DNA of 64,000 nt from a virus (Duplodnaviria > Caudoviricetes). The stretch covers positions 11,671 through 75,670 of the IMG/VR virus record IMGVR_UViG_2871871566_000003. The stretch is one strand, 5' to 3'. The notes beneath the pieces are model-generated. The model did no database searches. It saw only the letters and a list, made by a program, of their open reading frames with translations, and had not been told where the DNA came from. Positions 3,522 through 41,800 of this stretch are shown here, piece after piece. The translations under genes and the position numbers were made by a program. Position 1 is the first letter of the stretch, and each line of letters starts with the position of its first letter.

Positions 3522-3524
3522 AAG

Positions 3525-3965
3525 CTAGCACTTTTTGTTTCTATACCAGAGAGTGAACCCAATCGCGCAAGCCGCCAGTACGAACAGAAAGGCGATATAG
3601 CATCTGCCCAGCGACATCAGCCTTTGCTCGTTCTTCGTCAGTTGCCGCTCTATAGGATAAGGCACGGCTACAGAATCCCTCTTGATGATCGTGTCCGTCT
3701 TCACCTTATATATATTATGATACCGGTCCCGATAAACCACCTTATTATGGAAAACCGTATCACCCTTCTGAAAAACATATACCGAATCCTTCATGTAGAT
3801 ACTATCCAACTTAGCAAAAGTATCAGTTCTGCATACGTATTCAGTTCTAACAGAAGGAATCTTGATATATTCCTTCGTCTTGCATCCTGTAAATGCCAAT
3901 AGGATAATTCCAATCACCAGCCCGATGCAAGCCAATTTCCAAAACCTTATGTCATACCATTTCAT
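3525..3965 (-). CDS. Lysis-cassette lipoprotein (spanin-like)
   Basis: Lipobox LLAFTGC, C-terminal TM helix, follows the endolysin. Confidence 0.6.
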   Translation of the reverse strand: MKWYDIRFWKLACIGLVIGIILLAFTGCKTKEYIKIPSVRTEYVCRTDTFAKLDSIYMKDSVYVFQKGDTVFHNKVVYRDRYHNIYKVKTDTIIKRDSVAVPYPIERQLTKNEQRLMSLGRCYIAFLFVLAACAIGFTLWYRNKKC

Positions 3966-3968
3966 AAG

Positions 3969-4412
3969 CTATATATCTTTGTATTCAACTTTAGCGTCAA
4001 AGCAAGGGCACTCCTTGATTCTCTCCCAAGGATCCACTACGCCGTTATGGTTCCTGTCGGGCGAAATATCTCTGTGCCCCAAGATTTCAGCATCCGGATA
4101 TTTCTTCTTCAGCTGAGTGAGCAGAGTGATAAGCGATTTCTTCTGCTCCTCAGTTCTGTTGTCTACCGCCTTTCCCTTCTTGTTGATGCCGCCAACATAA
4201 GCCACATTGATAGCCGTAGCATTATATCCCTTCACACCGTTGCTAACCATTTCTACCGGCAGCATCTGGTGAATCCCACCATCAGCAGTAATCACATAAT
4301 GGTAGCCTGGGTTATTCCAACCTTTTCGCTTAAACTCATCCCAAAGCTCCTTCACGCCCCATTTCTGAGAAGAGGCACTGCAATGAACAAAAATTCTCTT
4401 AATCAGTCTCAT
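3969..4412 (-). CDS. Endolysin, N-acetylmuramoyl-L-alanine amidase (Amidase_2, T7-lysozyme-like)
   Basis: IFVHCSA, GYHY, GHRD, CPCFD zinc-amidase motifs. Confidence 0.92.
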   Translation of the reverse strand: MRLIKRIFVHCSASSQKWGVKELWDEFKRKGWNNPGYHYVITADGGIHQMLPVEMVSNGVKGYNATAINVAYVGGINKKGKAVDNRTEEQKKSLITLLTQLKKKYPDAEILGHRDISPDRNHNGVVDPWERIKECPCFDAKVEYKDI

Positions 4413-4852
4413 TTCTTCTCCTCCTTTCCCTGCTCCTTTATAATCTCAGCAAAAGCTCTGGCCAAGTCTTCTTTGTTCTCCAGAAGAATGCTTACCGTCT
4501 TCTCCTGCTTCCGTATCTCAGCCTTCTGCCAGCTCTTCTCTCTTACGCTTACAAATTCACAGAACACGCAATAGCCTGCCCAAATCATAGAGAAGACAGG
4601 GAAGGGGAGAACCGTACAGGCTATCAGGTCTATGCAGACCGTCACCATGAAGGGAGAGAAGTATTTCCTCGCCTTGTCGCAAGTCTTCTTGAATCCTGTA
4701 CTTGTCGTAGCCAGTCCGTTTTCTTTCGCTTTCTTGATGCCAAAGAACAGGTCCACGCCCATAGAAATGATAAGAGCACCCATGCAGATGGCAATAACCA
4801 ATGCCGATCTGTACAGGTGCTCTTGTAAAAATGTATGTACTATCTCTGCCAT
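4409..4852 (-). CDS. Phage holin
   Basis: 2-3 TM segments; 4-bp overlap with the endolysin. Confidence 0.75.
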   Translation of the reverse strand: MAEIVHTFLQEHLYRSALVIAICMGALIISMGVDLFFGIKKAKENGLATTSTGFKKTCDKARKYFSPFMVTVCIDLIACTVLPFPVFSMIWAGYCVFCEFVSVREKSWQKAEIRKQEKTVSILLENKEDLARAFAEIIKEQGKEEKK

Positions 4853-4878
4853 ATATCATTATTTTTGATTAATGGCTA

Positions 4879-4920
4879 CAAAGATAAAAGGCTTTTCAAT
4901 AGCTTTTGCCGTGTTCCAAC
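4879..4920 (-). promoter_or_regulatory. Putative late promoter of the lysis operon (16-bp motif + 18 bp + -7 box)
   Basis: GTTGGAACACGGCAAA (4920-4905) then TATCTTTG (4886-4879). Confidence 0.7.
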
Positions 4921-5382
4921 TTAGCTGTTCATGTACCACCAGATTTTATCTGTAGGGTGGTTTGTCGATTCGTCACAGAGGAAACTGATAGCAAGTTCCG
5001 AAATCCTTTTTCTTGTGGTGTCTTTGTTCTTCGACCATTTGCCAACCACGTCTATATGGTCAGCATACATCTTATTCATCGTTACCGCAAAATCCCAGAA
5101 GTTGTAGTCCGGTATGTTCCATGATAACCTTTCATAGTCCTCCTTCAACTCATCAAACCCGAAGTAAGGAGCATACTTTTTGTGAACATCATCATCAAAA
5201 TAATAGATGTTGGCGATGCAGGCTCTGCCCAGTTGCTCGTCAAAGTGATGCTTTCTTTCCATCCAGTAAAGAAGATTCCTCTGCACAATCCTCTCTTCTT
5301 CCTCTGTAAACCCACACTCATCGTTTCTTAGCATCCCAAAGGCAGATTCTGCTATTCGATAGAGCGATTTTGATAAATCCAT
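4921..5382 (-). CDS. Hypothetical phage protein
   Basis: 153-aa ORF, YNFWDFAVTMN motif. Confidence 0.75.
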   Translation of the reverse strand: MDLSKSLYRIAESAFGMLRNDECGFTEEEERIVQRNLLYWMERKHHFDEQLGRACIANIYYFDDDVHKKYAPYFGFDELKEDYERLSWNIPDYNFWDFAVTMNKMYADHIDVVGKWSKNKDTTRKRISELAISFLCDESTNHPTDKIWWYMNS

Positions 5383-5804
5383 AAGCGTAAAGCATTAAAG
5401 TGAATATGATAAACACATGGTGCATCTCCAGCTGCTCGGGAGTGATGAGCCAGTGCTGATAATACAATCTGATAGCGTTGATACCAAAGAAATAAAAGAA
5501 CGGAATGCGATAAATCCAGCAGTATCTGAAAAAGAAACTAACCGGAATCATGGATAAAGGCATATAGATATACGCCAGTATGTAAATCCAGATGATGCAG
5601 TTGCCGCTATAGTTGGTATCTATTATGGTAGGTCTAGGGATAATGCCCATAGTCCCATACGCCGTACCAATGACCTAACATCAATGGTATGGGTGCCCAC
5701 TTTGCTAGAAGTTCATAGAACCTCCAAATCTTCCTACTCAATAAGCCTTCCATTACTAAGGCTTCCTCCTCTTTCGAGAGAGGTGATTCCTGTTTTGTTC
5801 TCAT
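5318..5804 (-). pseudogene. Membrane protein gene split by a 1-nt frameshift
   Basis: ATG 5804 reads MRTKQESP...WDYGHYP then TAG at 5636-5634; continues in another frame (RPTIIDTN...TM helices) to 5318; total span is 3n+1. Confidence 0.6.
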
Positions 5805-6005
5805 TTTGTTATGATTTTATGGCTTAATCTTACCTTTTGTTAACTGTTTCTGAGGTTTGCATCTCATTTTGTTGCAAAGTTAAACTTTTTCTTTCGTAAC
5901 ACCATGAAAACCAACATAATATTAAACTTATTTAAATCTTTATGTGCTTATTTGGTCATATTCTAAATAATATGTATATTTGCAACATCTTAATGTAGCA
6001 TTTAT

Positions 6006-6461
6006 ATGGCAAGAGCAAATTACGAATTGATTGACAGACAGAGGGATGATCTGATGAAGGCGTATCGGGAGATAGCTCCTAATTGCCATTCCCAACAGGA
6101 GGCTTGGGAAAAGGTGGTCCATTCTCCTGCTCCCAGATACTATGTTTCTCCCAAAAGAGCTTGGGATATACTCCGCAGAATGGCAGTCGGTGATTTCTCA
6201 AAGGTGGATAGCATGAAGCCGATTCGGCAGAAGTTATACTATACTCTCTTCAATAGGATGAACGAAATGACGCAGCGCAAGGAGTTCGTAGGCAAATCTT
6301 TATGGTTTATATGCCAGTTCCTTGTTTCTGAGCCTGCCCCCGAGTTCTTTATCCAGCCAAGTAATCTCAAATTCATTTTCGCTTACTATAAGAAATATGG
6401 GAAAAATTACAGAGAAATGGACCTTCGTAAGAAGAAACTTTCGCACAAAGCTGGTGCTTAG
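6006..6461 (+). CDS. Hypothetical helical protein, possible transcription regulator
   Basis: Two SPAPRYY/EPAPEFF repeats; own TATATTTG -7 box upstream. Confidence 0.7.
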   Translation: MARANYELIDRQRDDLMKAYREIAPNCHSQQEAWEKVVHSPAPRYYVSPKRAWDILRRMAVGDFSKVDSMKPIRQKLYYTLFNRMNEMTQRKEFVGKSLWFICQFLVSEPAPEFFIQPSNLKFIFAYYKKYGKNYREMDLRKKKLSHKAGA

Positions 6462-6879
6462 CATCATCTGCATCGTTCTGTGTACTTGGCACGTCGGTTT
6501 CTATCCCGGTTGCCCTTGGCAGAATCATATCCTGTATAGCTTCTTCCACGCCAACGGCTTTCATCTTTCCGTAAACCTGCTGGTGCTTTGGCAGATAAAG
6601 AACTATATGAAACCAGTCACTTCTCTGGCTGTTGCCTCTGTCGCTAGTCTGCTGCCCATGTATGTTAGTCAGCCTACAATGGGGCTTTCCGGTTTCCTGT
6701 TCGCATCCTTTGGTTTGATGTGGGGTAAGACAGGACGATGGAAAGAGGCATTAAAGAAAGCGATGCCGTTCATCCTGTTCACAATGATACTGAGTAATGT
6801 GAACGGACTTCTCCATCTTTACTGCTTCGTATTAGGCTACATCGTAGCGTATTGCATAAATAATATCAAAAACAGATAA
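6397..6879 (+). CDS. Rhomboid-family intramembrane serine protease (minimal)
   Basis: HANGFHLSVN (HxxxN), MGLSG (catalytic Ser) and LLHLYCF (catalytic His) in hydrophobic helices; start uncertain. Confidence 0.85.
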   Translation: MGKITEKWTFVRRNFRTKLVLSIICIVLCTWHVGFYPGCPWQNHILYSFFHANGFHLSVNLLVLWQIKNYMKPVTSLAVASVASLLPMYVSQPTMGLSGFLFASFGLMWGKTGRWKEALKKAMPFILFTMILSNVNGLLHLYCFVLGYIVAYCINNIKNR

Positions 6880-6931
6880 CACACATATAAAGAGAATCAT
6901 GTTTTAAAAAATGTAATTTTAGATAATTTTA

Positions 6932-6965
6932 AAGGCGACCACTCGTGATGAGCAGCCGCCTTTTT
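6932..6965. terminator. Intrinsic terminator between convergent genes
   Basis: AAGGCG...CGCCTT stem plus T-run. Confidence 0.6.
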
Positions 6966-6997
6966 CATGTTATCATAAATTAGCGCGTATGAAAGAA

Positions 6998-9796
6998 TTA
7001 TCTCATTTTGTCTTCTCGTCTGCTTTGTACCTCTACTATACTTCCAGCAAAGGCATCAGCAGCCTTGAAGTTCTGCAGCGTGTACTTGAAAGTAAAATAT
7101 TTCCAAGGCTTGCCGCCGACGCTTGGCAGCTTGCACCAGTGCTTGCAGTCGTTGCTTCCGTATATCTCCAGCCCAATCGTACCTTCGTCCGAATCAAACA
7201 GATGCTTCACCGCTCTCAGCGATTTCAACGTCATGCTGCCGCCCAGTTTCAAAGGTCTGGTAGTAAATGATCCGCTATAGCTTTCCGTATCTTCGTTGAT
7301 GTCTGGCTTTCCTGTCAACGTGTAGATAGACATGGCAATATCCTGCACAACGTTGTCCGGATAGTCGTTTGCTATTTTGTCAATAGGCGCATCTGCTACA
7401 GACATGCCGAATGTTCCGTCTACCATATTATATATATAGTATATCTTCTCATTCTCATCAAAGTCCTGTTCTCCCGATTCATTCTCAAACCAACCTTTAC
7501 TCTTTTTGTATATTCTCAGCAGCGAATCTCTATAGTCATAAGCTATAATGCAATTCTTCAAGAAATCCAAGAAACTTTCTGTCTGTAGCTTCTTAAAGTT
7601 CTTTGGAATCTTCCCGCTCATTGACGTGCTTACGCATTTTGCGGTACCACCAGATATAGCCATAAGTCCTTTGTCAGATGTAAAGTATACAAGCCTGTCT
7701 GTTGGCGTAATACTATCCGGATTGTTACATACTTCTCTTGAAATAGGATGAACGCTTCCATAAAGACCTTCTGATGTTACGCTCATTGCGTATATTCCTT
7801 CATCAGTAAACACTAAAAGAGGATATTGACCGAACTGTCCCTGGCTCACTGCTTCCGTGTTGGCAACTATTCCTATTATCTTTCCTGTACCTATCGTATT
7901 ATCGCCCGATGCCTCGAAAACAAATGGATTGTTTACGACAGAAGTAAATATCTGTGAGTTTAAAACCTCAGGAACATTCATGTTTTTTATCTTTTCCAGA
8001 AGCTCTTCTTCTGTTATAGTTTCAAAAGTTGCATCGCCGTCTTTTGAAGGAAGGTTGGTAAAAGAATAAGCTCCGTTCAGAAAAGGGTGTTCTGTTAGAG
8101 GTATGTTCAGATACTTGCCAGAGCCGTACAATATGATTTCTTTTGCATTAGGATCCGGATAATAAAACCAGCCACGCAAGAAAGAGTCACTTATGCCTAT
8201 TACTCTCATAGTCCAGGTATCAACCCAATTTGATACAATATGCGTATACATTATATAATTATTATCGCTTGCTAAACCTTCTCTTCCGACGAGCTTTTTG
8301 AAACCGGCAAAAGGGTAGCGCTCTACATCATAAAGGTGTAGGCGGTTATTGTAAGTATAAATCTTTTTTGAGGTAAGCTTTGCCCAGCTATAGTAATCGT
8401 CTACTTTCAGTTGGCTTTGTGTAGACAGGTTGCTTACTACTCCGTCTGCAATGAATGTCGGCTGCCCGTAATGTGTTCCGTTCACAGAGTAAAGCCATTC
8501 TCCTCCTTCTCCTAACCCATTCGTATTGATTCCGACAGAGAATAATTTATAGAATTGCGTCTTACCTTTCAGCTCTTCTATTATATCTTGGTCCGTTTTG
8601 TACGTCGGCTGTATCTCGCTATGAGGAATAATTTTCGAAGGGATGTCATAATTAAATACATCTTCTTTGTATGATGAAAATCCATAGTTTGCAAATGGCT
8701 TTCTATGGGTGTCGTTAGGAGATAAAAAACGCCAGCCTTTACTGATTTCGAACGGAATAACCTGTTCTGTAGCAAAAACGACAATCTCCTTGATGATGTC
8801 TTTCCAATCTTCGCTTATCGAACCGAATTTAAATCTAAGCTCACTATATTCAATAAAGTAGAAAATGCTTTCTGTACCAGTCATTTGATTTAAATCGTTA
8901 TAGTATTTGTTTTCAAATGTTGCTCCACTAAATCGGCAATTTCTGTTTACAGTAGGATAGCAGATGATAGGAGCTGTTATTTTCGTATAACTTCCATCAT
9001 ATAGCTTGAATGCACACCTGATAAAAAAAGGAAACGCAAACATATTCTTGCTTTTTACCCAATTAATCGCCTGCATCACATGACCCTGTACGGTTTCCTG
9101 GAACTCATTGTAATATTTTGCACCATTAGTTCCATCTGACTTAATCCAAAAATAATGGAATTGACCTGTTTGGATCATGCCACTAGGTTCTGTTCCTCCT
9201 TGTTTTATAAATGCTCCGTTCGCATCATAATACATCGTCTGGTTTGCCGTATTGTCAACGCAGTTGCTTACATTCATGAGAGTTCTGTCGTACTCGTCTG
9301 GTCGAAACGAACCTGCATAACTCGGTTTCTCGAAAGAAAACTGATATGTTAGTTCAGGAAAATCTTTCAGAAACTTGTAGGTCTTAGACTTGTATACAAA
9401 ATAGTACAACCCGCCACTTGTAGTAACAACCACCGTATTACCTGAGCTATTTACATCATAGATTTCAACATCTATTTCGAATGATTGCCATGGCCCAGAC
9501 TCGATAGTTCCATCCTCTTTACTTTTAGCAAAGATAATTTCATCTTTTTCGTCTTTATTGTATTTGCTTTTTTGGTTGAGCATGACGTATGTTCTGTAAT
9601 CAGCGCCTTTGTGAATATATAATATAGGTCTGCCGTTTGTTACATATTTGGGTTTCTGTACCGCCTTCATTTCCCCATCCTTAAAGATAAATCCGTCACT
9701 CTCCAGCAGTTCAGAATCATCTGAAAGCAAGTCGCTAGGCACATTCGTCATGCCCTTGCTAAAGCTCAAAGTTTGTCTTTCTAAGTTTCTTTCCAT
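6998..9796 (-). CDS. Virion tail protein (tail tubular B / stabilisation-protein-like)
   Basis: 932 aa, beta-rich, immediately downstream of the terminase in the late operon. Confidence 0.55.
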   Translation of the reverse strand: MERNLERQTLSFSKGMTNVPSDLLSDDSELLESDGFIFKDGEMKAVQKPKYVTNGRPILYIHKGADYRTYVMLNQKSKYNKDEKDEIIFAKSKEDGTIESGPWQSFEIDVEIYDVNSSGNTVVVTTSGGLYYFVYKSKTYKFLKDFPELTYQFSFEKPSYAGSFRPDEYDRTLMNVSNCVDNTANQTMYYDANGAFIKQGGTEPSGMIQTGQFHYFWIKSDGTNGAKYYNEFQETVQGHVMQAINWVKSKNMFAFPFFIRCAFKLYDGSYTKITAPIICYPTVNRNCRFSGATFENKYYNDLNQMTGTESIFYFIEYSELRFKFGSISEDWKDIIKEIVVFATEQVIPFEISKGWRFLSPNDTHRKPFANYGFSSYKEDVFNYDIPSKIIPHSEIQPTYKTDQDIIEELKGKTQFYKLFSVGINTNGLGEGGEWLYSVNGTHYGQPTFIADGVVSNLSTQSQLKVDDYYSWAKLTSKKIYTYNNRLHLYDVERYPFAGFKKLVGREGLASDNNYIMYTHIVSNWVDTWTMRVIGISDSFLRGWFYYPDPNAKEIILYGSGKYLNIPLTEHPFLNGAYSFTNLPSKDGDATFETITEEELLEKIKNMNVPEVLNSQIFTSVVNNPFVFEASGDNTIGTGKIIGIVANTEAVSQGQFGQYPLLVFTDEGIYAMSVTSEGLYGSVHPISREVCNNPDSITPTDRLVYFTSDKGLMAISGGTAKCVSTSMSGKIPKNFKKLQTESFLDFLKNCIIAYDYRDSLLRIYKKSKGWFENESGEQDFDENEKIYYIYNMVDGTFGMSVADAPIDKIANDYPDNVVQDIAMSIYTLTGKPDINEDTESYSGSFTTRPLKLGGSMTLKSLRAVKHLFDSDEGTIGLEIYGSNDCKHWCKLPSVGGKPWKYFTFKYTLQNFKAADAFAGSIVEVQSRREDKMR

Positions 9797-9828
9797 AATA
9801 ATTCAACATTTAACATTCAACACTCCCC

Positions 9829-11946
9829 CTAAATTTTCGCCGCCGTATGAACACCATCACCACCACGGCTTATTCTTTCCGCTTTCTTCCAGCTAGGCTT
9901 CTCCATGTCCGTAAGACTTACAAAGAGACCGATACCGGTACTCATTACCACATCATCATGGTTTCCGTTACCAACGATGTTACCCAAGCTGCCATCATCA
10001 TGTCGCTCATAGATGCGCAACTCATGATACATTTCCTTGTCTGGCTCCTCATACAGGTTATCATCAATAAACTCTTCCAAGTTATCAATCACCTGTTGCT
10101 TCGTCAGCTTGTTGGTTTGGAAACCATACTTCGCCAGTACGTTGTCTTCCACATTCTCCGAACTGCTCGTTCTCTGATACAGATTATCGTAGTAGTCGGC
10201 AATCTCCTGCAGAATAGTCAGAAAGTGATCACCCTCCGTGTTATTGTTCTTCTCTCGGTCGGCCGTATTACTCTCTATCACCAGAAGCGCATCATCATAA
10301 TAATGGGCTAGGGCAGCAGCCATCCATGCCAGCTTGTCATGTCTTACATGTCCTCTGTATCTAGCTACTACCTTTGGCTTGCCCTTCACCGTAGGAATCA
10401 TACCGAATCGGTCTATCACGGTCATAACGGTATAGTCCGATGTCGTACTCTTACCGCCAATATCCACGCTCACCAAATATCTGTTCTCCACTTGCAGACA
10501 GTTTGGCACAGCCCAAATCTTCAAGTCTCCCTCTCCATCGTCTCTCAGCTTCACCTTCGAGTTCGGAATGGTATTATCATCCTTCACGCTGATGTTCACT
10601 ACGATGTCGGCAGTAAACTTAGGGTCTTGCTTATACATAGCCTGCATATCGTCTATAGAATAAGGATTGAATACCAGTCTGCCAGAGTTTCTGAACGCAT
10701 CTTCCTCATCAATAGGAGCCTCGGTAGCACATGCCGCATGGGTAGTAAACTTGTTTCTGTAGTTTCTGTACCATTCTATCGCCTCAAAGCAGGCACCCTT
10801 CTGCCACATTCGCCAGAAGAACTTGCCGGTCTCACGATAACCCTTCGGACAGGTGCTTCGGTCTCTGTTCTGCAAAAGCCACTTGGCAAATGCTCTTCTG
10901 TTCTCTACAGGAGTCATATCCTTTTCGATGAAGAAACAAGGAATAAAGAGGAACGAATAAGCATCATTATTCTTTGGGTCCATGGCCAACTGGCACTTGT
11001 CGTAGAAGAAACCAGAGTTACCTCTACCGGTACTCTCGAATATCTCCACGTTGTCTTCCAATGGGTCGATACCACCGGAGATAGATGAAATCACACCCTC
11101 AGGATCATGCTCTGGTGTCTTCTTCCAATAGGCTACCTCCGAATAGTGGGCGCAGTGGAAGTTACTACCACGCACAGAATCGAAGTTCTCGAATGATGCT
11201 ACAGTCAGCGTACTTCGTCTGATTGCCTTCACACCATCCGTTACCTGAAAGTCGTCGGGAGAATTTTCGTATGGCGAGAACTGGAGTTTTGCGCCCTGAT
11301 GCCCCACGGTCCACCCCGGCTGCCGCTCCAAAGCTTTTCGGTACATAGCCTTAATCTTCTTGGCGGTATTCTTCTGTTGGGCAAGCACAATAGCATTCCA
11401 ACCATCGCGCCTGTAGTCTTGAATCCATTTGATGTAAAGCTGTGATAGGGTAGAGCCGCCCCACTGACGTGCCTTCAGAATAACCACGAACACCGGTTTG
11501 TGGGCATTCCGCAGGTCTTCCATAATCTTCAGTAGCTTTCTCTGAGGATAGTTCAGCTTGAAAGGAATCATCTTACCGGTCTTCTTATCCTCAATCTTAT
11601 CGGTCACATATAGGGCAAACTCGGGGTCTTCCATGAACCTCACTCTGCAGATGGCAAAGGTAAGCATTTGGAAATGCTGGGCATCATCCTTCTGGTGCAG
11701 CACGTAGTTGATGTAGTCTTTCAAACTGCCCATCTTTCTCAGACCTCTGAACAGAACAGATTTGGCAGTCTTCTTCGGAACCCACATCTTGGGAATGAAG
11801 AAATCGGATAGTTCTATCAGCACACGATGCTCAAAGTTATAGCATCCTTCGCCTGTCATAGGGTCGTAGGTGCCATAAATCTCATCGTATCGCTCCTGAT
11901 TTTCCGCTACGAGATTATCTATTTCCTGTTCAGTTACTAGAGCCAT
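9829..11946 (-). CDS. terL: Terminase large subunit
   Basis: ILKARQWGGST Walker A, HYSEVAYW Walker B, ESTGRG, VDIG and HDD nuclease residues. Confidence 0.93.
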   Translation of the reverse strand: MALVTEQEIDNLVAENQERYDEIYGTYDPMTGEGCYNFEHRVLIELSDFFIPKMWVPKKTAKSVLFRGLRKMGSLKDYINYVLHQKDDAQHFQMLTFAICRVRFMEDPEFALYVTDKIEDKKTGKMIPFKLNYPQRKLLKIMEDLRNAHKPVFVVILKARQWGGSTLSQLYIKWIQDYRRDGWNAIVLAQQKNTAKKIKAMYRKALERQPGWTVGHQGAKLQFSPYENSPDDFQVTDGVKAIRRSTLTVASFENFDSVRGSNFHCAHYSEVAYWKKTPEHDPEGVISSISGGIDPLEDNVEIFESTGRGNSGFFYDKCQLAMDPKNNDAYSFLFIPCFFIEKDMTPVENRRAFAKWLLQNRDRSTCPKGYRETGKFFWRMWQKGACFEAIEWYRNYRNKFTTHAACATEAPIDEEDAFRNSGRLVFNPYSIDDMQAMYKQDPKFTADIVVNISVKDDNTIPNSKVKLRDDGEGDLKIWAVPNCLQVENRYLVSVDIGGKSTTSDYTVMTVIDRFGMIPTVKGKPKVVARYRGHVRHDKLAWMAAALAHYYDDALLVIESNTADREKNNNTEGDHFLTILQEIADYYDNLYQRTSSSENVEDNVLAKYGFQTNKLTKQQVIDNLEEFIDDNLYEEPDKEMYHELRIYERHDDGSLGNIVGNGNHDDVVMSTGIGLFVSLTDMEKPSWKKAERISRGGDGVHTAAKI

Positions 11947-12343
11947 CCGTTAAATCGTTTAGTTCTTCGAAATCTGCATCCTGTATCTCGGGTGCTTTGC
12001 TTATATCCAGCACGTCTGCCTCGTCTTCGTCCTCTACGGTTGTCATACCGAGTGCCATAAGCTGCTTGAAGTCTGCATCTATTCCGTGGGTAACGCTTAC
12101 TTCTGTCTGCTTTGGTATCATGTGCTTGGTAAGGTCTTTGTAGATGGTGACGTATGTCTTAGGATCATACTCTGCCAGTTGGTTCATACAATCCTCAAAC
12201 TGCTCTTGGCTCCTTGCCAGCCAGTCACGTATATATTCCTTTTGGGCACTCTTCCTTGCAGGGAGAAGTTTCTTTACCTTCTCCTTCTTCTCTTTCTGTA
12301 TCTCCCTTACAGACTTAAATCCATACATTTCAAAATCTTCCAT
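11930..12343 (-). CDS. Probable terminase small subunit
   Basis: Small helical protein overlapping the terL start. Confidence 0.5.
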   Translation of the reverse strand: MEDFEMYGFKSVREIQKEKKEKVKKLLPARKSAQKEYIRDWLARSQEQFEDCMNQLAEYDPKTYVTIYKDLTKHMIPKQTEVSVTHGIDADFKQLMALGMTTVEDEDEADVLDISKAPEIQDADFEELNDLTDGSSN

Positions 12344-12357
12344 ACGCTCGCTTTTTA

Positions 12358-12966
12358 TTATCCGAAGGGTTTCAGAGTATGAATCATGCTGCCCGGCTTG
12401 GTTGAGTTGGCGCAGTCTATGATGTCTATCTCCAGTTCGTCCAGTTGGTTCATCTGGTCTATCGTCAGAGGGTCCTTGCTCGTCAATGTGCGCATAAAGT
12501 ATTCGTATAGCGCACCGGTCACGATATAGTCGTGTATCAGCTTGACGAGTGCATCATATTTAGTATCATCCCAGTAGTCGGGAAATTTCAGCCATATCTC
12601 CTTCTCATCCCATTCTCTCAGGGCATTATCTCTTACCCTTCCTTCTGGTTTCATCACATAGGCAGACAGATTCGCTTCCACCTTATTAATATACTTGTCA
12701 AACCAACGGTAAAAGAGCGGACGTTCCTGATCGTTCTCGCTTGTCGGAATGTCTTCGCCTTGTGCGTCCTTCATGTTCCGTCTTGCGCGTCCTACCATGT
12801 TGGTGTTTGCATCAATATCATACCAGAGTTGTGTGGCATAGATAAAGATGTGCTTATCCCAATAGCCGTGCCCTGCTCTTCGTGGCTTCGGCAAGAAAGG
12901 ATTTGGCTCGGGCTTCCATCCTCTCTCTCGGATAAAATGTGTTGGGTGTAATTTGTTAAACTCCAT
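12358..12966 (-). CDS. Hypothetical structural protein (head completion/adaptor candidate)
   Basis: Position in the portal-terminase operon. Confidence 0.6.
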   Translation of the reverse strand: MEFNKLHPTHFIRERGWKPEPNPFLPKPRRAGHGYWDKHIFIYATQLWYDIDANTNMVGRARRNMKDAQGEDIPTSENDQERPLFYRWFDKYINKVEANLSAYVMKPEGRVRDNALREWDEKEIWLKFPDYWDDTKYDALVKLIHDYIVTGALYEYFMRTLTSKDPLTIDQMNQLDELEIDIIDCANSTKPGSMIHTLKPFG

Positions 12967-12967
12967 C

Positions 12968-13780
12968 TTATACCTCCTTTGCTACGGTTGCTTCTACTTC
13001 TACTTCCAGTTTGTCGCTGTGTCTGGAGAACAGAGTGATGATTGCTACACCTGTATTGATAGGCTTCAGCCAGAAAGCATGTGGCTCCTTACTTCTGTGT
13101 ACTTCCAGTATACTAGGGTCGCTGCTTCTTGCCTCAATATCATCAATGGTTCCTTCATCAATAGAGTAGGATAGGGTAACTTCCATATCGTCAATACGTA
13201 TGGCTACAGCTCCGTCCTCTTCGCTTCCGTCCACCTTGGCGGTCAGATGTTGTGTGTAAGGAACAGTAGGAACTGCCGGACCGCTCAGAACGAAACATCT
13301 TCTGATGCTCTGCTCGTCAATGGCGAGTGATGCTTGGTAAATCTCAGCCTGTTTCAGATTCGTGGTTCTCGTCCACCATTGGAAGGTCATGTAGTCTTCC
13401 ACATACTTTGCCACCAGTCGGGCAAGTGTATCGGTCAGCGTTCCGTTGCATCTTCGTGAAGCGTTGATGGTAAACTCTACCACATCATCCGTCTTGTTGC
13501 CGTAATAGATGATGTTGTCTCCTATGGTCTGTGCGTTCGGCACAAGATACTCGGCAAGAATCGTCTTCACAATCTCCAGCGAAGTATCGAAGTCATGCGT
13601 CAGCACTCTTTCGTGTACTTGGTCGTCGCCAGCAGCCTCGTTAAAGCCTACTTTTGCAGCATTGTTGTCTGCCGCAGTATCTATCTTTGCTTTCAGGTAG
13701 GTTGTTGCCTTTACCGCTTCAATCACTACCGATTTGATGATTTGAAATTTTATGATCATATCTTTTCCTTTTTTAGTCAA
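12968..13780 (-). CDS. Hypothetical structural protein with C-terminal Ig-like (Big_2-type) domain
   Basis: C-terminal RSSDPSILEV...GVAIITL pattern. Confidence 0.6.
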   Translation of the reverse strand: MTKKGKDMIIKFQIIKSVVIEAVKATTYLKAKIDTAADNNAAKVGFNEAAGDDQVHERVLTHDFDTSLEIVKTILAEYLVPNAQTIGDNIIYYGNKTDDVVEFTINASRRCNGTLTDTLARLVAKYVEDYMTFQWWTRTTNLKQAEIYQASLAIDEQSIRRCFVLSGPAVPTVPYTQHLTAKVDGSEEDGAVAIRIDDMEVTLSYSIDEGTIDDIEARSSDPSILEVHRSKEPHAFWLKPINTGVAIITLFSRHSDKLEVEVEATVAKEV

Positions 13781-14264
13781 TGATTACTTCTCCTGTCATG
13801 TCTGCCAGGCTCATGTTTCTACTTGCCGGTGGAGTCTTGTGATAAATCAGCTTAATGGCAGCTGCTATATGATTAGCCATGTCCTCCGCATACTTCTTGG
13901 CTAGGTCTGGTTCTGTCATTCCCAACACAGCATTCGATACATAGGCTATCAAATACCCGATGAAGTTGCCTTCAAATGGAACGGTAATACCGTCTTCTCC
14001 GTCTGCCCATCTGCTGTTTTCGAACTTAATAACCATCGCGTCTCCGTTCTTGTAATAGGTTACTTGTGGTGCCAGCTCTGCTACAAATGTTTCTGCCGCA
14101 GCGTTGATATACTGCTTCATGATACCTTTCTCTTCCGAAGATAGGGTGGTCTTGGCAAACATCGTATCGCCGTTCTTATCTTTCAGGCGTTTTCCGATGA
14201 GAGCGAAGTGTTTGTTCACCTCACTCATCACCTTCTCCATTTCTATCGTTATCTGTACTTCCAT
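13773..14264 (-). CDS. Hypothetical structural protein
   Basis: Coupled to the portal gene; resembles the helical part of 12968-13780. Confidence 0.6.
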   Translation of the reverse strand: MEVQITIEMEKVMSEVNKHFALIGKRLKDKNGDTMFAKTTLSSEEKGIMKQYINAAAETFVAELAPQVTYYKNGDAMVIKFENSRWADGEDGITVPFEGNFIGYLIAYVSNAVLGMTEPDLAKKYAEDMANHIAAAIKLIYHKTPPASRNMSLADMTGEVIID

Positions 14265-14267
14265 ACC

Positions 14268-16301
14268 TTATGCTGCTCTGTTATATCCTAATGCACTCTG
14301 TGCCTGTGCTACCGCATTCTGGTCTGCACCCTGCACAATTCCGTTCTCTACCTTACCACCACCTTGCTGCATAGCCATTGCCTGTTGCTGCTGATACATC
14401 TGTTCGAGCTGAGCCTGCTGCTCCTGTACGCTGGCAAGCAACTTGTCTGCAAATGGTGCGTTGAGGTTCTGCAGATATTGGATGATGTTGATGCCGCCCA
14501 TTTCAAGAAGCTTGTCAAGCGTATCGTTTTGCATCGTGTTGAAGGCTGCTGTAGCTGCTGCATTCTTGATGCTGATCTTGAAGTGTATATCTCTTGCCGA
14601 AAGGCGGTCGTAGTAATATATTGCATTGAAGTTCCGGTCGTAAACCTTTCTTCCGTCTTCGTAATATTGCTGGATAGTCATGCACTTCTTGGTTGCCAGC
14701 TTCTCCGTAAACACGTCCATGTCGGCAAGGATGGTATACATAGACGTGGTTGCGTTCTGGCTTTCCTGTGCATATCTCGCTGCCGAAGTTCCTGCCGATG
14801 GAGTCTTACCCTGCAAAGCACCGCTCACGTTGGTAACCTCTCGAATCAGGTTCAGCTCTATCTGCAAGAGTTCATTTGTACCGATGTTCACGGCATTCGA
14901 TGTGATAATTTCAGGTTTCGCATTCGGTGTCTTTACCGATGGCTTGTAGAATATCCATCCGTCATACTCTACCGCCTCCTCCATAAACTGCTCTGGTGTT
15001 CTGCCGTTAAGCACATTCGTAGGAATCATCTTGAATCCCTTGAAACTGCTTCTGATAGCCATGTCGTTCATAACAATCAGTCGGTTGATGTATCGCTGCT
15101 GGTCTATGATGTTGGCAAGGAACGGATGAATTTCTCCGTTGATATACGGATATAGCTTCATAGTGAAAGGATGGCTCTTATAATCGTATGGAGTTTCGCC
15201 CTGGCAGAGGATAGTTCCGTCTGGCGCCATGTAGGTATAATACCAGTACTTATCTGCAATCTCTTCGCTGGTGATATACGCCCTGTCTTCTTCCGCTATA
15301 CCCATTTCGTCATACTGCTGCTTGCGCTTCATATTGTCGTTGCGCAGCTTCTGTATCATCGCAGTATCATCCAAATCTATGCGGAAGTAAGCACCGGTTC
15401 CTGTGGTCGCAATCGGGTCAAAGCATTGCAGTCTTGGCTTGGTTTCCGTGGTCCACACCTCAATCACTCTAGAGTAATGTCTTCCCTTGTTGCTATGGTC
15501 AAAACTGAGATTCTCCAACGCCTTCTCTTCGTTAAACTCATAGCCGTAGCTGTTATCGTCCGAAGGATAAATATCAAAGATGGCGTTCAGATCTTCTTCT
15601 GTAAGCCCATATTCCTGTTTGGCAAACTTCTGATACAAGTCTTCTCGGCTCACGTCATGTAGTACACCGATAAGGCTCACGTCGTTGTGTCGTGTATCGC
15701 TGCCGCATTCAAAAAACATGTGGTCTGGTTCCATCGCGTCTGTCCATGAGTCGGGCATTTCTAGTTCCTTCGCCTCCCAACTCTCCCTGACAAACATCTG
15801 ACCGCCCATAAGATAGTCCTTAATAGCGTGGTTCAGCACATCTTGCATGTACGTTGTCTGCCAGTTGCATTGCATCGTCGCACTCATCATGTCGCTCAGT
15901 TGTCGGGAGTCGCTATCTCTTGCAAAGCAGACCGGTTCCGTTCCCTGCTTGGCATAAAGACCGGCAATAGATTCCAGTATGCTCACCATGATGTTGTTGC
16001 TCATAGGTGTCTGGTTGCGCCTCTCCATATAGGTGCGCTCTGTCATTTCCTCCCAGTAGCCATGATGGTATACTCTGATGGTGTCGCTCCATTGGTCGCC
16101 CATACAGTAGCGCATCGTTCTCGCCCTCGTTTCTCGCACACCGCTCAGGTTATTCCAAGCATTTCTGCATCGGCTGAGTAACTCCTCGTCCTTGCCGTGT
16201 TCTTGTCTTCGCTTGCGAGCCTTAACCGAGTCATACTTGTTATGTTGAGGCATCACTTTGCTAAGTGTCAGTATTCTTGCCTTTGCCATTTTCTTATACA
16301 T
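14268..16301 (-). CDS. Portal protein (P22-like)
   Basis: 677 aa; YCMGDQW near the N-terminus, DQQRYINRL, Q-rich C-terminal barrel. Confidence 0.85.
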   Translation of the reverse strand: MYKKMAKARILTLSKVMPQHNKYDSVKARKRRQEHGKDEELLSRCRNAWNNLSGVRETRARTMRYCMGDQWSDTIRVYHHGYWEEMTERTYMERRNQTPMSNNIMVSILESIAGLYAKQGTEPVCFARDSDSRQLSDMMSATMQCNWQTTYMQDVLNHAIKDYLMGGQMFVRESWEAKELEMPDSWTDAMEPDHMFFECGSDTRHNDVSLIGVLHDVSREDLYQKFAKQEYGLTEEDLNAIFDIYPSDDNSYGYEFNEEKALENLSFDHSNKGRHYSRVIEVWTTETKPRLQCFDPIATTGTGAYFRIDLDDTAMIQKLRNDNMKRKQQYDEMGIAEEDRAYITSEEIADKYWYYTYMAPDGTILCQGETPYDYKSHPFTMKLYPYINGEIHPFLANIIDQQRYINRLIVMNDMAIRSSFKGFKMIPTNVLNGRTPEQFMEEAVEYDGWIFYKPSVKTPNAKPEIITSNAVNIGTNELLQIELNLIREVTNVSGALQGKTPSAGTSAARYAQESQNATTSMYTILADMDVFTEKLATKKCMTIQQYYEDGRKVYDRNFNAIYYYDRLSARDIHFKISIKNAAATAAFNTMQNDTLDKLLEMGGINIIQYLQNLNAPFADKLLASVQEQQAQLEQMYQQQQAMAMQQGGGKVENGIVQGADQNAVAQAQSALGYNRAA

Positions 16302-16316
16302 TATTAATTATAGGCG

Positions 16317-16417
16317 CAAAAATAGGCAAAAACATGGCTTTCTTTGCCGTGTTCCAACCAACCACCAAGCGCAAGGTTGGAGCACGGCAAAACTTCTTCG
16401 AATTATTTGCATTTTTG
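16317..16417. promoter_or_regulatory. Divergent late promoter pair (portal operon / scaffold-capsid operon)
   Basis: Inverted 16-bp motifs at 16343-16358 and 16376-16391, each 18 bp from a -7-like box (TATTTTTG, CATTTTTG). Confidence 0.72.
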
Positions 16418-16447
16418 CCGAAAAGTTTCAAACAGTATTATAGAGAT

Positions 16448-17239
16448 ATGACAAAAGAAGAATTAGCACAGATGAATGAGGAAGGTGGCGCACAACAGGC
16501 TCCACCTGCTGAGGCTGCTACAGATGAAACGTCTGTAGATGAGCGCCCTAATCGTACAGCTTTCTCCAAGCGTTTCTCCAATCGTCACTCCGACATCGAC
16601 TTCGAAGACAAGGAAGCTCGTTATGCGGCAATGAATGATGATGCTGATCTGCTCGGACAGTACGAACAGAGCGGTAAGGCATTGTCTAAAGTATTCGATA
16701 AGCACAAGTGGCTCGCTGCTCTGGCGATGGATATGGATAAAAATCCGGACGACAATCCGTTTGATGCGATGGCTCGTTTGGGTATTGACGTGAAGACGTT
16801 GCTTGATGATCCTGAAGGCGGCAAGAAACTCGCTGAGATTCTCGCCAAGCATAACAAGGACGTGGCTGAACAGAACGAGGCTGCCGAGAAGGTTACTGCC
16901 AACATGCGCAAGTCGCTTGAACGTCTGATGAAGCTCTATCCCGATGATGCGCAGGATATGTGGTCCCAGATTTACGAGATTCACGACAAGGTAGAGAGTG
17001 GCGATATTTCAGATGATATTTGGAAGATGCTCCACAACGCCAACAACTACGATTCCGACATCACTTCGGCGCGCGACGAGGCGGCTATGCAAGCCCGAAA
17101 CGAGAAGATTCAGAATAAGGTGCGCTCTTCCGCAAACGAGGGTATTCCTCCTTCACTTTCTAGTTCGGGTGCAGGAAACGCACCAGCTAAGAAGAAAACT
17201 AAGAAGAGAGCATCCAGTTTCTTTGATGATATAGGTTAA
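16448..17239 (+). CDS. Probable capsid scaffolding protein
   Basis: Acidic coiled coil directly upstream of the capsid gene; ATG 16448 lies downstream of the promoter. Confidence 0.65.
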   Translation: MTKEELAQMNEEGGAQQAPPAEAATDETSVDERPNRTAFSKRFSNRHSDIDFEDKEARYAAMNDDADLLGQYEQSGKALSKVFDKHKWLAALAMDMDKNPDDNPFDAMARLGIDVKTLLDDPEGGKKLAEILAKHNKDVAEQNEAAEKVTANMRKSLERLMKLYPDDAQDMWSQIYEIHDKVESGDISDDIWKMLHNANNYDSDITSARDEAAMQARNEKIQNKVRSSANEGIPPSLSSSGAGNAPAKKKTKKRASSFFDDIG

Positions 17240-17264
17240 CACAAGATTATTAATCCATAAATAT

Positions 17265-18959
17265 ATGTATAAAATGAAGAAAATTTCAAATTATTTTTCT
17301 AATCGTCAGTTCATCTTTAAGATGATTCTGATGCTTCTTGCAGTTGCTACAGGCGGTGGCGCAATGGCTGTTGGTGATGATGTTGAACCTGATTTGAACG
17401 AGCCGGGTTCTAAGCCAGCAACAACCGAAGAGACAGCTGCCAATGAGCAGGTAGATAAGGATAAGAACGACATGCTTGCCCCTGGTGGTAAAGCTGCTGG
17501 TCAGTCTTTGACTGGTACGCAGGCTTCTGCTACACAGATGGACCGAGGCGGTCTTGAAGAGGAAGACTGGGACACGGGTGAGACCAAGTTCCGCCCATAT
17601 CATACACCTCTCCTTTCTATCGTCAAGAAGTTTACCACAACTGTTCCTTGTACTGGCTACAAGAAGAAACACGCACGCTATGGTGGTGAGACCTTGGACG
17701 GTGAGGTTACACAGCCTATTGCTACTGGTGCTTCCATCAAGCTTACCAAGACAAACTTCTCAGGCTCTTTGAAGCCATTCTACGAGGGTTCTACTGCTAT
17801 CGTTCCTACCGTAGCTGGTTACAAGCGTGGCTCTACTACAGTTCGTGAAGGTCGTTTGGTTCTCTTTGTTACCAGCGCCAATAAGTCAGGTACTGAGGTT
17901 ACCTTGCAGGCTATCAATGGTAAGGCTAATGAGGAGGGTGCCGATTGCGAGTTCTTGGAAAACATGACTTGCCCGAACATTCCTGTTGGTACAGTTATTT
18001 TGGCAGCTTCTACAGCTCTCTCTGAGTCTCAGATGAAGGTTCCTGCTGAGAACTACCAGCCACGTTCTGCTGATGTTTATCTCCAGAAGCGAGCATTCTC
18101 TATCGTCTTCACCGAGGACTTCGAGACCATGAAGAAGAAAATTCCTCATACAGTGAAGGATATGAAGGAAGATGCACTCAACAAGTACAAGATGCGTGCT
18201 GAGCGTTCTTATTGGATGGGTACCAAGGCTCGCATTCACTCTACTACCAATGACGGTGCTGATGAGTACACCTACTTCGCAGAGGGTATCTTGAATCAGC
18301 TGACTAACCAGTATGGTATCGGTGAGGTTTACAAGTACGAGGATTTGACTGCTATCAGTATGTTGATGTTCACAGACTTCTCTGAGTCTGACCACATCTA
18401 TATGTTCTGTGGCAAGAACGCAATCAAGCGCCTGATGAACATTGAGATTCCAAAGGGTCGCACAGAGGTTCTTTCTACTCACAAGGAAATCGACATTACT
18501 TTCTCTCGCTACGTTGACAACTATGGTACTATTGATTTCGTTTGGGATCAGACTCTTGACATGATGCACATGGAAGACTGCATGGTTGGTATGGACTTGA
18601 AGGGTGCTCGTCACTACGTGAAGGAGAAGGGTAAGGATAAGACCAATGACATGAGCAAGGATGGCTACGATCCACGTGAGGCTAAGCGATACATGCACAT
18701 TGAGGCAGATTGTATTGCTCTTCGTGGCTACAACTCTATCTTGGTTGGTCCAGAGGCATTCATCACTAACCTTGGTGTTACTGGCATCGTGAACAGCATC
18801 ATATCTCTGAAGACTCTCCCTGATACTGCTGCTAAGGGCATGAAGGTGGCTTTAACAGAGGATTACACCAAGGATGAGACAACCTACGAGAAGGGTAAGG
18901 TTTATGAGTACGATGGTACTAAGTGGAACTTGTATGCCGGCATGGACGTTGCTGCATAA
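17265..18959 (+). CDS. Major capsid protein
   Basis: 564 aa, strongly biased codon usage, follows the scaffold; N-terminal hydrophobic stretch. Confidence 0.8.
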   Translation: MYKMKKISNYFSNRQFIFKMILMLLAVATGGGAMAVGDDVEPDLNEPGSKPATTEETAANEQVDKDKNDMLAPGGKAAGQSLTGTQASATQMDRGGLEEEDWDTGETKFRPYHTPLLSIVKKFTTTVPCTGYKKKHARYGGETLDGEVTQPIATGASIKLTKTNFSGSLKPFYEGSTAIVPTVAGYKRGSTTVREGRLVLFVTSANKSGTEVTLQAINGKANEEGADCEFLENMTCPNIPVGTVILAASTALSESQMKVPAENYQPRSADVYLQKRAFSIVFTEDFETMKKKIPHTVKDMKEDALNKYKMRAERSYWMGTKARIHSTTNDGADEYTYFAEGILNQLTNQYGIGEVYKYEDLTAISMLMFTDFSESDHIYMFCGKNAIKRLMNIEIPKGRTEVLSTHKEIDITFSRYVDNYGTIDFVWDQTLDMMHMEDCMVGMDLKGARHYVKEKGKDKTNDMSKDGYDPREAKRYMHIEADCIALRGYNSILVGPEAFITNLGVTGIVNSIISLKTLPDTAAKGMKVALTEDYTKDETTYEKGKVYEYDGTKWNLYAGMDVAA

Positions 18960-38800: not shown

Positions 38801-41800
38801 TAACGTTGGCATTCTTTGCTATAGCTTCCAAAACATCACGTTTTCTTTGTCCGTTCTTTGAACCTTTACCATTCTTTCTTACCGTTTTCTTTCCATCCTC
38901 ATAATCCATAGTTCCACTAGAGAAACTATCATACGTAGTAACGATATAGTCATATCCGTCTGGTAACTTACCATTCTTTTGAAGATAATCCATCACTCGC
39001 TCCTGCTCTTTGTCAGAAGATAATTGATAGACTAACTTGCCTTCCGAGTCTGTCATGTCGGCAGAGTGTTCCTTGTCCTTTGCAGCCCAAATAAAAGGAC
39101 GCAAGTCAGAATTACCAATACTCTTCAAATCTCTGTACATATCGCTAAATAGAGCCTTCTTGGCTGTGATAAATACAGGAATCTTACCTTGCTTATAGGC
39201 AAAGCGAATCATGGCAGCAGCCTGTCTTCCCTTACCGATACCAGTCATGTCACCGATAATGAAAGCATTTCCTTGCTTAGCTTGATGGATTGCAAGTGCA
39301 ACGGAATCTGCTTGCTCGGATGCAAGTGCATGGTGCATATCGTCTGCATCGTTATAGCCAAGTTCATCAACCAAGAAGCTATCAACATCGCCAATCTTCT
39401 CCAAGGCTTTCTTTGTCGCTCTGGCTTGGTCGGCAGGAATAACCGAGTTGAGACTGAAAGGGTTGTTGCTTTGAGGAACGTATTTCACCTTTTCGGTACT
39501 CAACTCACGCTTAGGTGATTCTTCTTTTTTTACTCCCAGTCCATTTCCCTCTCGTGTGGGAACAGTCCGCTGAACGCTGCTGCTGGAACGTCCTTGTCCT
39601 CCTTGTTGCTTTCTATCTCCTCCTGTTCCTCTTTCGTTGCTGGTCTCATTGGCATTCCTAGCAACTGAGCCTTCAGGTACTCGCCCTCCGTTGTCCAGTC
39701 TAGAACTTGCTGAGCCAGTTCCTCTATCTGCTCCAAAGTCGGAATCTCTTCCGCTTTCCAGTTCGGCGTTATCTCCCATGTGTTCAGATGGAGTTCGTTC
39801 AGTTTCTCCCATAGGTCGCTCATCACTTCCTCCGGTTCCCAAATCTGATATGAATCCATCAGGTCCAGAGCCATGCTCCTTGTTATTTGTGACTCCGTTA
39901 CCACCTCGCTCTTTTTGTCTGAGACTATCCCCGGAAACGTCAGAAACACGTTCTCTGTTGGAAAGTCCCAAGGGTTCTTTCTGCACCCCTCGTTTACGTA
40001 ATATGTCATCTTCAATTCGTTTATAAAGTTCGTCATAATCTTTCACGGCTTCCGCTCTAGCATCCTTATCAACTGGTGGGAACACCTTGTGCTCAGGATC
40101 GTAATTGCGTCTTCCGTTTATTAATATAATACGTGTAGGATAGCTGGTTCCCTGCTTTGCATAGAGACTACCATCCACATTAATCACGTCCTCCACATTA
40201 TAGTGGCTATAGAGATAACCAAGGAAAGCCTTATCCTTCGGATTCAGACTTCCGTTCTTGGCGTATTCCGTCTTGCCGCCAATAATAATAGCAGCACGAC
40301 CATCGTCCTTCATGCTCTCCAAAGCATTGATAGCCATCTGTCCTTCCAAAGAAGAAATCTTGTAGCCGTCATACTCCTTAGGGGTAGCACTACCGAATGG
40401 TGGGTTTGTTACCACCACGTCAACGTCCTTGTCTGCAAAAGGCTGGGTTCCATCCTGACTGGTCACGTTCTTGAAGCCCTGTCTTCTCAGGTTCGCCAAT
40501 CGCTGGGCATCAATATCGTTCACATGTACCTTATCCATTGGCAGACCGATGGTAAGCATACCGTTGCCGGCACTTGGCTCCAGAGCACTCTCAATCACCT
40601 TACCATTGCCCTTCACATACATGTCTGCAAGGAAGGCGTAAGGGGCAGGGGTAGAGTACTGCTGTTTCATCACTCGCTCAGAATCTCTCTGGTTGAGGCT
40701 AGGCTGATTCTCATAGAGTGTCTTGATGCGTTCAAACTTCACAGCATCGTTGGTTGATTCAGAAGAAGCGATACCTCTTGCTCGCTTAACAATAGCTGTT
40801 TCAGCAAGCTCCTGAAGGTCTGTGTCCTTAATATCCTTCAAACCAACTCTCTCAGCTATCTTTCTCAGCTCAACAATACCGTTAAACTTATGTTTGAAGC
40901 CCAACTGCAGGTTCACAACATCAATAAACCTCTTCTCAGCCATCTTTCTTTCCTCGGCAGTCTTGGAGTCGCCCACCAGATTCTCCTGATGCTTAGGCGA
41001 AGTCTTCTCGTAGTAGTCAGCCCAATCCTTCAAGCTCATGCGCTGCTCGCCATCGCGATAGCGGATATTCATCATCTGCTCATAGATAGCATCCACGTCT
41101 TCCTTCTTAAAGAGCTTGGCAGCAGGGGCAAACTCCTTGCGCATTTCCTTCACCACGTCTTCAAGATTGTGCATACCTCTCTTGATTCTCAGATAAGCAT
41201 TTTCGGCCATGGCGCTCACCAGCTTAGGCAATACTTCCAGCTGTCTAGAGTTAAGACCAACAAACGAAGCAGAAATTTCATCCTTGCCGGCATTCTTGAG
41301 CATATCCCAAAGGTCATTAACCTTCTTGTTGGAAGCTGCTACTGCTGCATCGTCAGCCTTCTGCTGAGGCTTCTTCTCTGTCTCAGCCTTAGTTTTCTTC
41401 TCCTTTCCAAAAGCTTCTGCTGCATTCTTGATTCCCTCCATAGGGTCAGCAGATGGTTCCTTTTTTGGAGCCTCAACCTTTGGTTCAGTCTTCTGCCCTC
41501 TAGTCTTGGCAAAGATGCTTTCATAGATAGCACGATGCAAATCATCTGTCACCTCACCGTTCAGATAATCAAGAGCCATATCCTTGGACAAATCATCCAC
41601 GTCTGCCTCCTTGATCTCATCCTCAGTCAGAGGATGCTCCTTCTTGAATTCCTGGGCGGCCGCCGCAATCGGGTCAAAAGTAGGGTCTGGGTTCTCTTCT
41701 TTAGGAAGGAGTGGGAGAGGTTTTTCTTTTACCTTACCGTCAACATATTCGACAACCTCATTCAGGTCACCATACTTCTTGCCATCATACTCGTAGTATG

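Follow-up and report, generated by a model that had tools for sequence, protein, structure and literature searches.

The lysis lipoprotein gene Rz1 of phage lambda lies wholly inside Rz, on the same strand and in the +1 frame, and both genes are translated to give products that cooperate. In Bacillus subtilis, comS, which encodes a regulatory peptide of 46 residues, is carried out of frame within the nonribosomal peptide synthetase (NRPS) gene srfAB, and in hepatitis B virus the spacer of the polymerase overlaps preS/S. Here we compare with these systems a nested open reading frame (ORF) from a virus of the Caudoviricetes. The stretch of DNA analysed, hereafter the window, comprises 64,000 nucleotides (positions 11,671 to 75,670 of record IMGVR_UViG_2871871566_000003) and belongs to an IMG/VR provirus record of 75.7 kb. 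From our comparative analysis, the nested ORF is very probably a genuine overprinted gene, located on the same strand and in the +1 frame inside the disordered methylase-helicase linker of a giant virion-type protein, with both frames being read.

Polyvalent proteins with a DarB-like methylase-helicase pair are an architecture described by Iyer et al. (PMC5512222). The giant gene of the window fits this architecture, with several effector domains in one chain and a methyltransferase fused to a Strawberry-notch helicase; its product matched the Pfam models ddrB-ParB (PF18763), MTS (PF05175, weakly), AAA_34 (PF13872), Helicase_C_4 (PF13871) and LPD38 (PF18857). In phage P1, the small accessory proteins DdrA and Ulx are packaged with DarB and needed alongside it (PMC12810830). 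The closest genomic matches of the window's methylase domain are to Segatella copri and Candidatus Segatella violae metagenome-assembled genomes, and a host belonging to Segatella or other Bacteroidales is part of our best explanation of the locus.

The nested frame and the selection acting on it

The features of the locus are listed below, with the ratio of nonsynonymous to synonymous substitution (dN/dS) given for the frame named.

39530 to 40036, minus strand: nested +1-frame ORF counted from its first ATG, 168 codons, with a TAA stop at 39530-39532
39533 to 40009, minus strand: conserved core of the nested gene from its second ATG, 159 residues, isoelectric point (pI) 4.26, Met invariant in 64/64 distinct sequences, inner dN/dS 0.20
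29874 to 47279, minus strand: outer gene, a single uninterrupted ORF for a 5,801-residue polyvalent DarB-like protein
40011 to 40832, minus strand: methyltransferase domain of the outer protein, 94% mean column identity, outer dN/dS 0.07, ending at the start of the nested gene
39533 to 39995, minus strand: outer-frame linker, low in complexity (rich in G, S, R, D, E and T) and hypervariable, outer dN/dS 2.45, constrained only to be free of stops
38430 to 39530, minus strand: N-terminal lobe of the Strawberry-notch-type helicase (Pfam AAA_34), outer dN/dS 0.04, conservation resuming right at the nested stop codon

The initial annotation, which was made from the letters alone, had described a 168-codon ORF placed between methyltransferase and helicase domains. 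We found the ORF at 39530-40036 on the minus strand, in the +1 frame relative to the 5,801-residue ORF, and its placement is borne out by the weak MTS match just upstream and the AAA_34 and Helicase_C_4 matches just downstream. The inner and outer peptides that had been quoted are both present in the translations, and the earlier count (about 36 Asp/Glu, 14 Lys/Arg and 7 Trp) agrees with ours of 36, 14 and 7. The description of the product as acidic and Trp-rich stood in its first half. Acidity is a property of the whole family, with a pI of 4.05-4.37 and a net charge of about -18 to -24 in 64/64 members, 29-37 acidic against 7-16 basic residues, and about 20 alignment columns in which at least 80% of members have an acidic residue; Trp richness is confined to this lineage, most relatives having 3-4 Trp. 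Within the giant gene, the nested ORF is the sole same-strand ORF of at least 150 residues in an alternative frame.

Loss of the ORF in related phages had been named at the outset as grounds for abandoning the idea of a hidden gene. Our scan of viral contigs recovered 80 relative loci whose methylase-helicase region is 53-79% identical, and the nested ORF is open in every one of them. Including the window, the giant frame and the +1 ORF are both open in 81/81 sequences, with the same start and end of the +1 ORF. In the outer proteins, the linker is hypervariable, low in complexity and interrupted by many insertions and deletions, whereas the flanks are 78-94% conserved. The inner products align as an ordinary protein family in which hydrophobic positions and motifs are conserved, though identity between clades is about 27-30%.

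An open +1 frame is by itself of limited meaning at such a site. A stop in the +1 frame needs T at the second position of an outer codon, and a hydrophilic linker is therefore prone to leave this frame open. When the outer protein was kept fixed and its synonymous codons were resampled, the +1 frame was open in 2-16% of trials, depending on the lineage; one genome thus proves nothing, and comparison among genomes must decide. The reverse experiment gave a different picture: with the inner protein fixed and its synonymous codons resampled, 12-14 stops appeared in the outer frame and 0/5,000 trials were open. As the outer frame is open in every natural sequence, the codon choice of the inner frame must be selected to keep the giant frame readable.

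Substitution patterns place the amino-acid constraint in the inner frame. Over 200 pairs (Nei-Gojobori), the inner frame of the overlap has a dN/dS of 0.20 and its outer frame one of 2.45, while in the flanks the outer frame gives 0.04-0.07 and the +1 frame 2.7-4.5; the window and its closest relative (L003) taken alone give 0.16 for the inner and 2.64 for the outer frame. Across the linker, the giant frame evolves as an off-frame of a coding gene would. Per-site entropy in the overlap follows the inner codon pattern (position 2 < 1 < 3), and the same holds in an alignment built on the outer protein. This flip covers six consecutive 30-codon bins (40052-39513) and occurs elsewhere in one bin only (42122-42033) among 93 bins spanning 8.4 kb; outside those seven bins, the third position of the outer frame is the most variable. 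A 97%-identical natural variant from a metatranscriptome-library contig shows the same at short range, with 12/14 differences within the ORF at inner third positions and 11/14 differences outside it at outer third positions. Codon usage scored in the window genome alone, which is only suggestive, is lowest for the outer frame and highest for the +1 frame in the overlap among 36 windows of the giant gene. In essence, both frames are maintained, and the inner frame alone dictates the sequence.

The nested gene probably starts at the second ATG of the reported ORF, at 40009. In seven relatives, codon 7 is followed by a stop, which lies between the first and the second ATG, and the second Met (residue 10) is the invariant one, which is why we take the conserved protein to have 159 residues in the window; products across the family have 137-159. 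In the outer frame of the window, the letters of this second ATG fall in the codons GAT-GAC (Asp-Asp). The stretch ahead of this ATG is the probable initiation region:

40010 to 40049, minus strand: probable initiation region of the nested gene, A/T-rich, 35% GC against 46% for the giant gene

At third positions of the outer frame, entropy is near 0 between about 40049 and 40001, and just upstream it is 0.7-1.9. Other genes in the window likewise have A/T-rich leaders and no Shine-Dalgarno site, which fits a Bacteroidota host. In the window, an inner-frame stop lies three codons before the first ATG, and in the 7 relatives the stop lies two codons before the second ATG; such stops just before the ATGs favour internal initiation over frameshifting.

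A second +1-frame ORF of about 41 codons was noticed at 41975-42100 on the minus strand, where the giant gene encodes another linker. In 72/73 distinct relatives it is open and begins with a Met (31-47 residues), and it matches the lone other bin in which the outer third position is less variable than the first. By eye, its inner peptide seems better conserved than the outer linker.

Recurrence of the layout in other phages and in a plasmid

Among cultured phages, a blastn search of the phage collection gave no match, and the tblastn matches were to Bacteroides phage BS-TP4 and an Acinetobacter phage only. BS-TP4 (PQ571277.1), a cultured temperate phage, shows 45% identity in the flanks and has a giant coding sequence (1511..17686) annotated merely as 'hypothetical protein'. 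Its linker holds the following feature:

L083:3833-4192 (BS-TP4): unannotated nested ORF of 119 residues, acidic, in the methylase-helicase linker of the giant coding sequence

BS-TP4 and 30 related viral contigs carry an acidic +1 ORF of 103-144 residues in the corresponding position of the linker. The entropy flip is present in this clade as well, dN/dS is 0.27 for the inner frame and 1.25 for the outer, and the outer frame is open in 24/24 unique sequences. Profile alignment of the window family with the BS-TP4-clade family (hhalign) gave an E-value of 8.5e-6 over 105 collinear columns, which is indicative that the two nested families are probably homologous.

The layout is found further afield in distant methylase homologues with a G/S/R/P-rich linker, from genomes of Bacteroidota, Alpha- and Betaproteobacteria and Acidobacteria, in which a +1 ORF of 91-172 residues directly follows the methylase domain. 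Among pairs of these with detectable similarity, the inner frame is the better conserved in 14/15 (e.g., 40 bits for the inner product against 17 bits for the outer in a Burkholderiales/Acidobacteria pair). A third clade, of proteobacterial type, was represented by 78 viral contigs. In all of them, the +1 frame is open for at least 90 codons (the +2 frame in 12/78) and the outer frame is uninterrupted, and dN/dS is 0.44 for the inner frame and 1.49 for the outer. A Shine-Dalgarno core stands before the inner ATG in 49/62 distinct sequences against a background of 12%, and an inner-frame stop immediately precedes the ATG in 45/78 loci. The end of the methylase domain in this clade ('...L-K-E-K-L') is encoded as TTGAAGGAGAAnCTAAATG, about 25 nt before the inner ATG, and these bases together supply the Shine-Dalgarno site, the inner-frame stop and the nested start codon. 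A mobilisable plasmid, plasmid3 of Synechococcus sp. NIES-970 (AP017962.1), has an acidic +1 ORF of 167 residues in the linker of a 'putative helicase' (L239:1097-1597) that matches the nested profile of the third clade with an E-value of 9e-7, and so the layout extends beyond phages.

In three Bacilli genomes, we also came across TnpV (PF14198) ORFs of 113-115 residues, each enclosed out of frame by a longer ORF of at least 870-905 codons. The nested protein was rejected as a TnpV: hhalign of the three nested families with seven Bacilli TnpV proteins gave probabilities of at most 0.1%, and PF14198 had no match in the window's genome at E-values up to 10, nor in ten related records or genomes. 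As TnpV and the nested families are dissimilar, the layout recurs with inner proteins that share no detectable similarity.

Among homologues that lack the nested ORF, some have linkers that are structured or rich in Lys and Glu, some have split genes, and others have an acidic linker that the outer frame itself encodes. This last arrangement was seen in Acinetobacter phage MD-2021a and in Yersinia, Pseudomonas and Xanthomonas plasmids, and these acidic outer linkers contain +1 stops. Conceivably, an acidic element beside the methylase-helicase pair may be supplied either in cis or in trans. No publication that we found in the literature searched describes a gene nested within a methylase-helicase or polyvalent gene.

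Predicted fold, possible role and alternative explanations

The idea of a folded, helical protein hidden over a low-complexity outer linker, with which the initial annotation had begun, is strongly supported by the conservation in 81/81 sequences, by the inner dN/dS of 0.20 and by structure prediction. The AlphaFold2 model from the 64-sequence alignment has a predicted local distance difference test score (pLDDT) of 74.8 and a predicted template modelling score (pTM) of 0.74, and consists of an N-terminal strand, five to six helices and a second strand. The model of the BS-TP4-clade family reaches a pLDDT of 88.0 and a pTM of 0.83 and has the strands and helices in the same order.

Searches for relatives of the nested protein returned little beyond its own family. 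It had no family match in Pfam, PHROGs or NCBIfam; the best PHROG match, a Gam-like family, was at chance level (E 0.15 over 31 residues). Among PDB sequences, profile searching found nothing significant; a search of the ESM Atlas gave a top score of 0.88 with low recognition, and a scan with the inner alignment over one genome per species gave no match. The models of both families were compared with PDB and BFVD by Foldseek and with 48,161 chains by VIA-align; the best Z values were 3.3-3.5, with none above 3.5. The structural likeness to Ocr, ArdA or Gam for which the initial annotation had suggested a Foldseek check did not appear among the Foldseek or VIA-align matches, although the absence of a match is not an exclusion. 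A word-indexed protein search returned only near-identical fragments, on contigs of 524-701 bp, and phmmer against 1.84 billion representatives added one member of the family (P0005, on a 524-bp contig with both frames open); the remaining phmmer matches were spurious, to long repetitive proteins. On the short contigs that cover this region alone (P0002, P0003 and P0005; 524-701 bp), gene callers had picked the inner frame, and the nested protein is present in the searched protein collection solely because these contigs isolated that frame.

As to how the locus would work, ribosomes translating the giant gene would make a linker whose residues do not matter and which would need only to be open and hydrophilic. 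Ribosomes entering at an internal ATG, most likely that at 40009 behind its A/T-rich leader, would make an alpha/beta protein of about 159 residues that is strongly acidic. This small protein could then bind a basic, DNA-binding surface of the methylase-helicase module or of the module's target. We tentatively regard the nested protein as a possible dedicated partner of the methylase-helicase module. We favour a partner over a host-specific inhibitor of restriction because the layout spans different hosts and a plasmid, because selection is purifying and because acidic in-frame linkers occur elsewhere.

Several observations weigh against this picture, in whole or in part. There is no family or fold match that points to a function of the nested protein. 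The gene darB of P1, the archetype, has no such nested ORF, and the ORFs in its alternative frames are only basic and chance-like. At the window's inner start, no Shine-Dalgarno site was found, which is normal for this type of host and leaves the start as the one we infer. The contigs from RNA libraries that contain the stretch attest to the presence of the sequence only, not to its strand, transcript or translation. The pairs used for dN/dS share ancestry, and the window's own family has only about 4-6 deep lineages. Finally, homology between the nested proteins of the proteobacterial and Bacteroidota types was not shown by profile comparison (E 0.078 and 0.26), and the wider pattern could thus be convergent.

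The alternatives differ in what they leave out. An ORF that arises as a by-product of the composition of a hydrophilic linker, with no protein made, would account for the 2-16% of outer-protein recodings with an open +1 frame, and long opposite-strand ORFs in alternative frames are indeed common in the giant gene. However, such a by-product would leave unexplained the inner dN/dS of 0.2, the sharp entropy flip, the invariant Met, the hydrophobic pattern, the confident folds and the Shine-Dalgarno sites of the third clade, and the acidic outer linkers of other homologues do have +1 stops; we regard it as highly improbable. It is about as hard to credit that the small gene alone is real, the methylase and the helicase being separate proteins and the continuous 5,801-codon frame an untranslated scar of fusion. 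The lack of amino-acid constraint on the outer frame of the linker (dN/dS 2.45) and the separate methylase and helicase genes of some distant homologues (L128, L130, L134 and L135) would fit a scar, yet the outer frame is unbroken in all three clades (81, 24 unique and 78 sequences) in spite of the 0/5,000 open recodings, and we saw no start signal belonging to a separate helicase gene. Phage structural genes commonly give frameshift products, and a programmed +1 frameshift could append the acidic protein as a tail to the N-terminal and methylase portion; the frame (+1, same strand) and the missing Shine-Dalgarno site of the window are in keeping with this. It is nevertheless very unlikely, as inner-frame stops precede the ATGs in the window, in the 7 relatives and in 45/78 loci of the third clade, 49/62 distinct sequences of that clade have a Shine-Dalgarno site upstream of the ATG, and no conserved slippery site was seen downstream of those stops.

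The remaining alternative accepts the gene and concerns its role. The nested protein could be a DNA-mimic anti-restriction protein like Ocr or ArdA that binds type I restriction or other defence enzymes, as the initial annotation had supposed. Its small size, its acidity conserved in 64/64 members (pI 4.05-4.37) and its location inside a DarB-like anti-restriction gene (PMC5512222) would suit such a mimic. The initial annotation had also offered, as a second possible role, inhibition of the phage's own methylase-helicase; the conserved acidity and the long joint inheritance with that pair would fit these ideas, but the family, profile and fold searches lent support to neither. Nevertheless, its sequence and fold resemble no solved mimic, selection is purifying and not diversifying, and the layout is kept across very different hosts and a plasmid, while mimics of the Ocr type are phyletically narrow (PMC5512222). 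It would also be made from the mRNA of a virion-type gene, which is late for an inhibitor acting at DNA entry unless the protein is packaged too. We therefore consider a DNA mimic unlikely, and return to the reading of a dedicated partner in the comparisons below.

Significance and comparison with known systems

Large polyvalent proteins are thought to be sent into cells with phage or plasmid DNA, and the nested gene sits in their methylase-helicase core; a conserved hidden partner, if true, could change how anti-restriction machines are understood and tested. The locus is also a clean natural case of dual coding: the DNA for a protein linker doubles as a second gene, whose product has a confidently predicted fold with no known relative. 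Annotation pipelines never call a gene within a gene, and hence the nested protein is missing from the annotated record of BS-TP4. Of one set of Chinese gut viromes, 31% reportedly contain this phage (PMC12694917), which together with its host provides a cultured, tractable experimental system. On a broader view, which we put forward as a doubtful speculation, the disordered linker of DarB-like methylase-helicase giants might repeatedly have given rise to small partner genes or provided them with a docking site. No fewer than three mutually dissimilar families (the window/BS-TP4 type, the proteobacterial type and TnpV) would then occupy one +1 slot in phages and plasmids across phyla, each encoding an obligate trans-acting subunit or regulator of an injected anti-restriction machine, and the window/BS-TP4 type would have a fold that overprinting created de novo.

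Like Ocr (T7 gp0.3) and ArdA, which come from mobile elements confronted with type I restriction, the nested protein is small and strongly acidic, its acidity being conserved too; it differs in having no sequence, profile or fold similarity to them. TnpV offers a likeness in layout, a small gene nested in a +1-type frame of a large gene, and differs in that PF14198 has no match here. Among the accessory proteins of P1, DdrA is likewise small and acidic (121 residues, 22 Asp+Glu against 7 Lys+Arg) and acts with a methylase-helicase anti-restriction protein. DdrA and Ulx are encoded by separate genes and not by nested ones, and hhalign of the nested families with either protein detected no similarity (E 0.39-0.5); they are nonetheless a functional precedent for small partners of DarB. 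As a separate observation on the Dar system, the annotated iddB of P1 (NC_005856, 26577-26975), an ORF of 132 residues, lies on the opposite strand inside ddrB and is another gene within a gene.

The arrangement at comS/srfAB is similar in that a small gene is translated independently from a shifted frame of a giant multi-module gene; there, however, the host gene is a bacterial NRPS gene with no part in phage biology or anti-restriction, and the small gene does not coincide with a disordered linker. With lambda Rz1/Rz, the locus shares a complete small gene in the +1 frame of the same strand within another phage gene. Both frames are functional in Rz1/Rz, whereas here the outer frame is a passenger spacer and the inner product looks like a cytoplasmic, acidic, globular protein. 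The overlap in hepatitis B virus belongs to a compact animal-virus genome in which space is saved, unlike the 75-kb phage genome considered here, which is under no comparable pressure of size; in both, one stretch of DNA encodes a tolerant spacer of a multidomain protein as well as another gene, which bears the selective constraint.

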